A stretch of DNA of 64,000 nucleotides from NCBI RefSeq assembly GCF_046105845.1, contig NZ_CP151004.1; one strand, 5' to 3'. Both the position numbers and the translations under genes were made by a program. This DNA comes from Escherichia coli (GTDB lineage Bacteria; Pseudomonadota; Gammaproteobacteria; Enterobacterales; Enterobacteriaceae). Below are positions 58,841-60,948 of the stretch, piece by piece. How positions within the stretch are numbered: the first letter of the stretch is position 1; every line of letters begins with the position of its first letter. Under the pieces are notes generated by a model. That model made no database searches. It had not been told where the DNA came from and worked only from the letters and a program-made list of their open reading frames with translations.

Positions 58841-59959
58841 ATGAAATACGATCTCATCATTATTGGCAGCGGTTCCGTAGGCGCTGCCGCCGGGTATTAT
58901 GCAACCCGTGCCGGTTTAAACGTGCTAATGACCGACGCCCATATGCCACCACATCAACACGGCAGCCACCACGGCGATACGCGATTAATTCGCCATGCTT
59001 ATGGTGAAGGCGAAAAGTATGTCCCGCTGGTTCTCCGCGCGCAAACGCTGTGGGATGAACTCTCCCGCCACAACGAAGAAGATCCCATTTTTGTACGCTC
59101 TGGCGTCATTAACCTTGGCCCGGCTGATTCCACATTTCTCGCCAACGTCGCCCACAGCGCCGAACAATGGCAACTCAACGTTGAAAAGCTCGATGCGCAA
59201 GGGATTATGGCCCGCTGGCCAGAAATACGCGTCCCGGACAACTACATCGGCTTATTTGAGACTGATTCCGGTTTTTTGCGCAGCGAACTGGCGATTAAAA
59301 CCTGGATCCAACTGGCGAAGGAAGCGGGCTGTGCGCAGCTGTTCAACTGCCCGGTCACCGCAATTCGTCATGACGATGATGGCGTAACTATTGAAACGGC
59401 TGACGGTGATTATCAGGCGAAAAAAGCGATTGTCTGCGCGGGAACATGGGTAAAAGACCTGCTCCCGGAGTTGCCTGTCCAGCCCGTACGCAAAGTATTT
59501 GCCTGGTATCAGGCCGATGGGCGCTATAGCGTGAAGAATAAATTCCCGGCGTTTACCGGTGAACTTCCCAATGGCGATCAATATTATGGTTTTCCGGCAG
59601 AAAACGACGCGTTGAAGATTGGCAAACATAACGGAGGCCAGGTTATCCATTCAGCGGATGAACGTGTTCCGTTTGCGGAAGTGGTCAGCGATGGTTCGGA
59701 AGCCTTCCCGTTCTTGCGCAATGTATTGCCGGGTATCGGTTGCTGCCTGTACGGCGCTGCCTGCACCTATGATAATTCGCCTGACGAAGATTTTATTATC
59801 GATACCCTACCCGGCCACGATAATACACTGCTCATTACCGGCCTGAGTGGGCACGGTTTTAAATTTGCGTCAGTTTTAGGGGAAATAGCTGCCGATTTTG
59901 CGCAAGACAAAAAAAGCGATTTTGATTTGACGCCATTCAGGCTTTCCCGCTTCCAATAA
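58841..59959 (+). CDS. solA: N-methyl-L-tryptophan oxidase
   Basis: 372 aa, [25 protein letters not shown] (FAD Rossmann GxGxxG). Confidence 0.96.
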
Positions 59960-59968
59960 TCATCATTA

Positions 59969-59993
59969 CGGCCTCCAGAATGAGGCCGTTTTT
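59969..59993 (+). terminator. Intrinsic terminator after solA
   Basis: Stem cggcctc / gaggccg with 6-nt loop followed by ttttt. Confidence 0.8.
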
Positions 59994-60006
59994 ACAGGAG
60001 TATTTA

Positions 60007-60120
60007 ATGCGTCGGCTGTTGCACTATCTCATCAATAATATTCGCGAGCATCTGATGCTTTATCTTTTTCTCTGGGGATTGTTGGCAATTATGGATCTGA
60101 TCTATGTGTTTTATTTTTAG
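60007..60120 (+). CDS. yceO: Small hydrophobic protein YceO
   Basis: ATG 60007 preceded by AGGAG Shine-Dalgarno (59996-60000); translates [37 protein letters not shown] (37 aa). An in-frame ATG at 59980 would give 46 aa but lies inside the solA terminator stem. Confidence 0.7.
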
Positions 60121-60381
60121 TTTTTCCACACTGACATAAACTGACAAATATTTAATCTCCCTTTCATTTAGCGTGAAAAATTGAATGAGATTATTCCTGC
60201 TTCAACAGCACTCACCAGACATCTCTGATGCTGAACCCACTAAACTTATGAAGATTCTTTCATTATTAATTCAAAATTATTGAAATAAAAATAAATATCA
60301 TTCAATTTGTTATTTTTGTGTTGCAATTCATTCTCCGACACGCCATTTTCTTTCTCTCGCAAATTCGTTTTGGATGCACTT

Positions 60382-60948
60382 ATGTCATTCACAAATACCC
60401 CTGAACGCTATGGTGTTATATCTGCGGCCTTCCATTGGCTAAGCGCAATTATTGTCTACGGCATGTTTGCTTTAGGTCTGTGGATGGTCACGCTCAGTTA
60501 TTACGATGGCTGGTATCACAAAGCACCCGAACTGCATAAAAGCATCGGTATTTTGTTAATGATGGGGCTGGTTATTCGCGTTCTGTGGCGCGTCATATCT
60601 CCACCGCCGGGTCCGCTGCAAAGTTATTCGCCCATGACTCGTCTTGGCGCAAAGGCTGGACATCTCGCATTGTACTTATTGCTGTTTGCCATCGGCATCA
60701 GCGGCTATCTGATCTCAACTGCCGATGGTAAACCGATCAGCGTTTTTGGCTGGTTTGACGTCCCCGCGACCCTCGCCGACGCTGGCGCACAGGCTGACTT
60801 TGCCGGTGCCCTGCATTTTTGGCTCGCGTGGAGCGTCGTAGTACTGTCCGTTATGCACGGATTTATGGCCCTGAAGCATCATTTCATCGATAAAGACGAC
60901 ACTCTGAAGCGCATGCTGGGAAAGTCGTCATCTGACTATGGAGTATAA
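60382..60948 (+). CDS. yceJ: Cytochrome b561 homolog YceJ
   Basis: ORF track over-extended; recognised start MSFTNTPERYGVISAAFHWLSAIIVYGMFALG (188 aa) at 60382; His-containing transmembrane helices. Confidence 0.93.
   Translation: MSFTNTPERYGVISAAFHWLSAIIVYGMFALGLWMVTLSYYDGWYHKAPELHKSIGILLMMGLVIRVLWRVISPPPGPLQSYSPMTRLGAKAGHLALYLLLFAIGISGYLISTADGKPISVFGWFDVPATLADAGAQADFAGALHFWLAWSVVVLSVMHGFMALKHHFIDKDDTLKRMLGKSSSDYGV

Follow-up and report, generated by a model that had tools for sequence, protein, structure and literature searches.

Results

Organisation of the solA-yceO region

The window analysed here, meaning the whole 64,000-nucleotide stretch of an Escherichia coli chromosome (contig NZ_CP151004.1 of RefSeq assembly GCF_046105845.1), carries the genes bssS-solA-yceO-yceJ-yceI in this order on the plus strand, according to the RefSeq annotation of E. 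coli. The solA coding sequence, encoding N-methyl-L-tryptophan oxidase, occupies 58841-59959 in both the open reading frame (ORF) prediction and RefSeq, and ends in the TAA codon at 59957-59959. A GC-rich hairpin on the same strand (59968-59989), a candidate leaky intrinsic terminator of solA, follows 9 nt after this stop. Its 8-bp stem is formed by the 5' arm ACGGCCTC (59968-59975) and the 3' arm GAGGCCGT (59982-59989), which enclose the 6-nt loop CAGAAT (59976-59981), and it is succeeded by a short T-run at 59990-59993 (TTTT, or five Ts if T59989 is counted). An earlier reading of this DNA, made from the sequence alone, had started the hairpin at 59969, one base too late.

Two in-frame ATG codons, ATG1 (59980-59982) and ATG2 (60007-60009), precede a common TAG stop codon at 60118-60120, such that yceO could encode either 46 or 37 amino acids, exactly as the sequence-only reading had described. 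On the K-12 chromosome, position 59980 corresponds to 1119447, and position 60007 to 1119420. The short form (60007-60120, plus strand) is identical to the RefSeq coding sequence WP_001253418.1; its start lies 17 nt from the hairpin, and is preceded by the Shine-Dalgarno (SD) motif AGGAG (59996-60000) with a 6-nt spacer. The long form adds the nine-codon extension MRPFLQEYL (59980-60006), which spans the end of the loop, the 3' arm, the T-run, the SD motif and the spacer, and is judged to be non-coding. The solA stop is 20 nt from ATG1, which the sequence-only reading had placed inside the terminator stem. The overlap with the hairpin is real, but the codon is not fully within the stem: its A and T are the last two, unpaired, bases of the loop, and only its G, which opens the 3' arm, is paired (with C59975). 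Upstream of the yceO start, the reading frame is open for 27 codons, with a stop at codon -28. The number of in-frame ATG codons expected by chance over this distance is approximately 0.42 (27/64), corresponding to a probability of approximately 35% for at least one, and the presence of such a codon is unremarkable in itself.

Several other features of the surrounding sequence were observed. On the minus strand, an ORF of 47 amino acids initiated by TTG (60004-60147) lies antisense to the whole of yceO; it is without support, and the conservation of the sense frame probably accounts for its existence. The longest ORF of the downstream cytochrome b561 gene, yceJ, begins at TTG 60307 (60307-60948, 213 amino acids), and RefSeq starts this gene at ATG 60382 (188 amino acids). 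Within yceO itself, positions 60065-60076 contain a run of five Ts and the homopolymer GGGG. Four YceO proteins in the databases (P0085, P0091, P0097 and P0098) have frameshifted C-termini following LYLF or LWG, which fits gains or losses of one base in these runs, and these entries may represent either true variants or sequencing errors.

Initiation signals at the two start codons

The best duplex between the 3' end of 16S rRNA and the region upstream of the start had a free energy of -6.9 kcal/mol at ATG2, a value matched by only 2.7% of random positions in the window, against -1.7 kcal/mol at ATG1. These values agree with the sequence-only reading that ATG1 lacks an SD motif. The same reading had described a near-perfect AGGAG at optimal spacing before ATG2; the motif and its spacing stand, but "near-perfect" was an understatement, given that AGGAG is a perfect match to the 5-nt anti-SD core. 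Using a structure test modelled on the start-codon test of bioRxiv 10.1101/2021.07.02.450978, the segment from -25 to +15 had a minimum free energy (MFE) of -5.7 kcal/mol around ATG2, against -14.5 kcal/mol around ATG1. Among the 44 starts of long ORFs in the window (mean -5.15 kcal/mol), 34% were as structured as ATG2, and 4.5% were as structured as ATG1. ATG 60007 combines anti-SD pairing at a 6-nt spacer (within the canonical 5-9 nt), low structure and a conserved start codon, the attributes of SD-led initiation, and each of pairing, low structure and conservation is missing from ATG 59980.

The same pattern emerged across the family. The median SD duplex was -4.8 kcal/mol for the core start, -2.1 kcal/mol for upstream in-frame candidates, and -2.3 kcal/mol for random positions, and the corresponding median MFE values were -5.2, -13.9 and -6.9 kcal/mol; the P values for these comparisons are descriptive only, because the loci are phylogenetically related. 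When longer contexts were folded, the yceO SD motif and start codon (59996-60015) paired with 60052-60071 (codons 16-22) at probabilities of 0.5-1.0, with the SD motif itself pairing with 60067-60071. This pairing was rejected as a conserved feature: other Escherichia lose six of the pairs and show no compensatory ones, and the stability of the region is unremarkable (z = -1.39).

Conservation of the start codon and the extension

When a single genome was scanned for each species, 80 loci from approximately 25 enterobacterial genera emerged, giving 81 with the window included. In every one of the 81, solA was directly upstream of yceO on the same strand, and the gap between them was 40-78 nt in 79. 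The codon equivalent to ATG2 was ATG in 74 of the 81 loci, GTG in five, and another codon in two. By contrast with this consistency, the extension was frequently impossible: 33 of 81 loci had an in-frame stop within the gap, and 44 of the 74 loci outside Escherichia had no in-frame ATG, GTG or TTG in the gap at least three codons upstream. An exhaustive protein search found that relatives of YceO nearly all start MRR[LI], and that the N-terminal extensions added to homologues by gene callers were unrelated to MRPFLQEYL.

Within Escherichia, ATG1 was kept by E. coli, by E. albertii and by an additional lineage, and three others had TTG in its place (L005, L007 and L008, comprising E. whittamii and two more). 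The hairpin arms and T-run were invariant in this genus, and the loop, which supplies the first two bases of ATG1, was the most variable segment. The extension residues RPFL correspond to AGG CCG TTT TTA, which is the 3' arm and the T-run in translation, and codons 6-9 correspond to the SD motif and spacer, with codon 8 varying between Y, I and L in closely related sequences. When pairwise comparisons were summed, extension codons 2-9 had a pN/pS of 0.34 and the 37 core codons one of 0.06, a contrast that holds although several of the extension codons are constrained as RNA. The core is thus under strong purifying selection, which is approximately five times weaker on the nine-codon extension. 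Of 5411 E. coli genomes, 5190 (96%) carried the 51-nt stretch that includes ATG1 without any change, and the two variants inspected kept ATG1, so that this codon shows no decay in E. coli. Hence the loss of ATG1 within the species is uninformative as a test.

Two exceptional gene structures were noted during this comparison. In Salmonella enterica subsp. arizonae (L058), the yceO frame, beginning at position 1501 of the locus, ends after 22 codons, and may be a lineage-specific pseudogene; that of subsp. diarizonae (L049) is intact at 37 codons. In some genomes, gene callers have fused the C-terminus of solA to YceO (proteins P0109 and P0115), which suggests a loss of the solA stop codon or frame errors in the assemblies concerned.

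The YceO family and its annotation

The Pfam model DUF2770 (PF10968) matched the 37-residue form from end to end, with residues 1-36 aligned to positions 1-36 of the 36-position profile (E = 1.3e-22; 79.9 bits, relative to a cutoff of 25), and its match to the 46-residue form started exactly at Met10. There was no NCBIfam model matching either form. In an alignment of 16 sequences, N10, N11, R13, E14, H15 and W23 were invariant. The N-terminal part of the 37-residue form is basic and leads into a hydrophobic stretch, and AlphaFold2 predicted this form to be one continuous helix across residues 2-36 (mean pLDDT 95.5), as the sequence-only reading of a single-helix peptide had anticipated. The gene yceO is real and conserved, and encodes a 37-residue single-helix peptide, putatively of the membrane.

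Comparison with existing annotation, which the sequence-only reading had proposed as a check, gave a divided answer. In the ordinary E. coli genomes examined, RefSeq annotates the 37-residue "YceO family protein" WP_001253418.1 with its start at window position 60007, and the equivalent short start is used in the two variant genomes inspected. Among the records examined, only that of K-12 MG1655 keeps the form of 46 amino acids (141 nt). Public protein sets contain both lengths.

The hairpin between solA and yceO

The hairpin stem contains six G-C pairs among its 8 bp and conforms to the stem and loop expected of an intrinsic terminator (at least 5 bp, with a loop of 3-8 nt, soon after a stop codon). 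The hairpin alone folds at -14.0 kcal/mol, and its 61-nt context at -16.3 kcal/mol (z = -2.49; three of 200 shuffles were as stable). The stem is followed by TTTTA, which contains four Ts, or five if the closing A-T pair is opened. A consensus terminator scan did not call the hairpin, with the threshold of at least five Ts in 8 nt missed by a single T. The sequence-only reading of this element as the solA terminator is consequently plausible but borderline: a hairpin followed by UUUU is present, but falls outside the consensus. Leaky intrinsic (Rho-independent) terminators occur between genes of one transcription unit, and the solA hairpin resembles them in its GC-rich 8-bp stem, its short U-run and its position 9 nt after a stop, just as yceO resembles the genes downstream of them in its very low expression and in having no promoter that could be found. 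It differs in that its U-tract is short (4-5 U), was missed by the scan, and is often absent in other genera. The E. coli hairpin is therefore a plausible, albeit borderline, candidate for a weak intrinsic terminator of solA. Among the entries listed in the PMC7815308 supplements, there were no mapped 3' ends near K-12 positions 1119290-1119449, solA being weakly expressed, and the only site listed for the gene was internal, at 1120419.

A hairpin was present in 80 of the 81 orthologous gaps; the sequence of its stem differed widely between loci, and its free energy had a median of -15.3 kcal/mol. The MFE of the gap had a median z of -2.93 relative to shuffles, and the distance from the end of the hairpin to the yceO start had a median of 21 nt across genera, being mostly 15-30 nt. 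Conservation was judged by presence, stability and these shuffle z-scores, as the stems are too divergent for positional homology to be sure. The number of Ts in the 8 nt after the stem varied from zero to seven, with three or fewer in 33 of the 80 loci scored, and almost none in Klebsiella, Raoultella and several Enterobacter. Hence the conserved hairpin may not be a classical terminator in every genus. No known RNA family in Rfam matched the region 59600-60450.

The only locus of the 81 without a hairpin was that of Buttiauxella sp. A111 (L077). Here, at approximately 1480-1503 of the locus, only 7 nt separate the solA stop codon TGA from the ATG of yceO, and the motif AGGTGA overlaps this stop. 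Read from its sequence, this arrangement points to co-transcription of solA and yceO, and possibly to translational coupling.

Transcription of yceO

The plus strand contained no sigma-70-like promoter between 59600 and 60500. The CAGAAT loop was considered as a -10 element, which it matches by eye at four of six positions, but was rejected as it has no usable -35. Nor was an embedded conserved element visible in the last 50 codons of solA, where third-position entropy was 1.15-1.46, relative to a gene median of 1.21, and synonymous diversity was not reduced. The yceO mRNA most likely originates from solA transcription reading through the hairpin, because the distance between the hairpin and the yceO start (17 nt in the window, with a median of 21 nt) is too short to accommodate a promoter, and no sigma-70 site was found nearby.

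Published data on the YceO protein

Chromosomally-encoded YceO-SPA is detectable, but according to the estimate in PMC12529367, induction from a plasmid gives at least 10,000 times as much protein; the SPA-tagged yceO strain is reported to derive from Hemm 2008. PMC12529367 reports an 11-residue peptide covering the upstream Met, and a 10-residue peptide, only from a pBAD24 construct carrying the 46-residue ORF, and not from the wild type. As this is an artificial construct with a vector ribosome-binding site, the peptide is silent on the native start. The same article (MCP 2025) lists the detection of YceO by top-down mass spectrometry, without the proteoform being given in its main text. In the other papers examined, yceO is described only as an acid-stress small protein.

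Discussion

The functional start of yceO is very probably ATG 60007, giving a product of 37 amino acids, as judged from sequence evidence: the SD motif, folding, conservation, pN/pS, the Pfam model and the RefSeq annotation all agree with the preference for the shorter peptide expressed in the sequence-only reading. Under this explanation, transcripts of solA would pass a leaky hairpin to form the yceO mRNA, and AGGAG at 59996-60000, in an otherwise weakly-structured region, would recruit the 30S subunit to initiate at AUG 60007. The hairpin would form on these read-through transcripts, sequestering AUG1 and leaving the SD motif and AUG2 outside. AUG 59980 would then be an accident of the solA-proximal hairpin, assembled from the final two bases of the loop together with the base that opens the 3' arm; the following four "codons", AGG CCG UUU UUA, are the 3' arm and the U-run, and those remaining are the SD motif and spacer. 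Leaky termination at the hairpin would also fit the very low native level of YceO. The 46-residue YceO of K-12 is most simply explained as an over-extended ORF call.

It is highly improbable that the 46-residue form, initiated at AUG 59980, is instead the true main product. The K-12 reference annotation lists this length, and ATG1 is retained by E. coli, by E. albertii and by one more lineage, within a stretch that does not vary among 96% of E. coli genomes. However, three Escherichia lineages have TTG at this codon, and in most other genera the extension either cannot exist or is unrelated in sequence. Neither the initiation signals, with an SD duplex of -1.7 kcal/mol and a start region buried in a structure of -14.5 kcal/mol, nor the pattern of selection, with a pN/pS in the extension approximately five times the core value, nor the Pfam profile, which begins at Met10, is as would be expected of a genuine N-terminus. 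While the 11-residue peptide covering the upstream Met is detectable from the 46-residue ORF in pBAD24, it comes from an artificial construct, with none detected in the wild type according to PMC12529367. A milder proposal, which we nevertheless regard as quite unlikely, is that E. coli makes both forms, with the 37-residue protein being the major product and the 46-residue protein a minor product made when the hairpin is open, either through co-transcriptional translation or through re-initiation after the solA stop 20 nt upstream. The A and U of AUG1 are unpaired in the loop, making weak initiation possible, and the solA stop is close by; yet the hairpin is 9 nt past this stop, and a ribosome positioned there should not unwind it, given the size of the ribosome footprint. 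The extension is also without conservation at the protein level. Alternative in-frame starts are documented in E. coli (bioRxiv 10.1101/520783; bioRxiv 10.1101/2021.07.02.450978), but none of this positive evidence is specific to yceO.

A different question is whether the hairpin, rather than being a terminator, is mainly a conserved RNA element between the two cistrons of a solA-yceO operon, which would leave the choice of start codon unaffected. Such an element might stabilise the 3' end of the solA segment, protect a processed yceO mRNA as a stem at its 5' end, or serve as a regulated attenuator. The recurrence of the hairpin in 80 of 81 loci, within a narrow range of distances from the start of yceO, argues for this possibility, as do the few Ts after the stem in many genera (three or fewer in 33 of 80) and the lack of a nearby 3' end among the entries listed in PMC7815308. 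However, the missing 3' end says little for a gene as weakly expressed as solA, the E. coli stem is followed by 4-5 U in a manner compatible with a weak intrinsic terminator, and no RNA family matches. We consider this role for the hairpin somewhat unlikely. Its most elaborate extension, in which a regulated attenuator ties YceO synthesis to solA transcription and read-through of the hairpin, with a 46-residue proteoform produced conditionally when the hairpin is open, seems improbable. The explanation preferred here remains initiation at ATG 60007 on transcripts reading through from solA.

This explanation places yceO among familiar systems. As a member of the YceO/DUF2770 small membrane proteins of Enterobacteriaceae, the 37-residue form is typical in its profile length, its position downstream of solA and its short helix, and shows no difference from the family; it is the K-12 annotation that departs from it, through nine extra residues outside the profile. 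The locus also resembles the over-extended early start calls and in-frame "isoform" starts identified by retapamulin or Onc112 profiling, in having two starts and one stop, with the annotated start being the upstream one. A total of 437 such "isoform" ORFs, some of which are possibly mis-annotations, have been described in E. coli (bioRxiv 10.1101/2021.07.02.450978). In contrast to these mapped starts, the case for yceO is comparative and thermodynamic only.

In substance, the short start is already known, being both applied by RefSeq automatic annotation and matched by the Pfam model. The start of yceO is therefore an ordinary annotation correction, with a small and practical consequence. If native YceO starts at Met10, the 11-residue peptide that has been targeted would be absent in vivo, and assays for YceO would be better aimed at a 16-residue or 10-residue peptide. 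Likewise, complementation or tagging constructs built from the 46-residue ORF would carry nine non-native residues. The case of yceO also illustrates that the arm of a hairpin and its adjoining T-run can take on the appearance of coding sequence, read in this instance as "RPFL".
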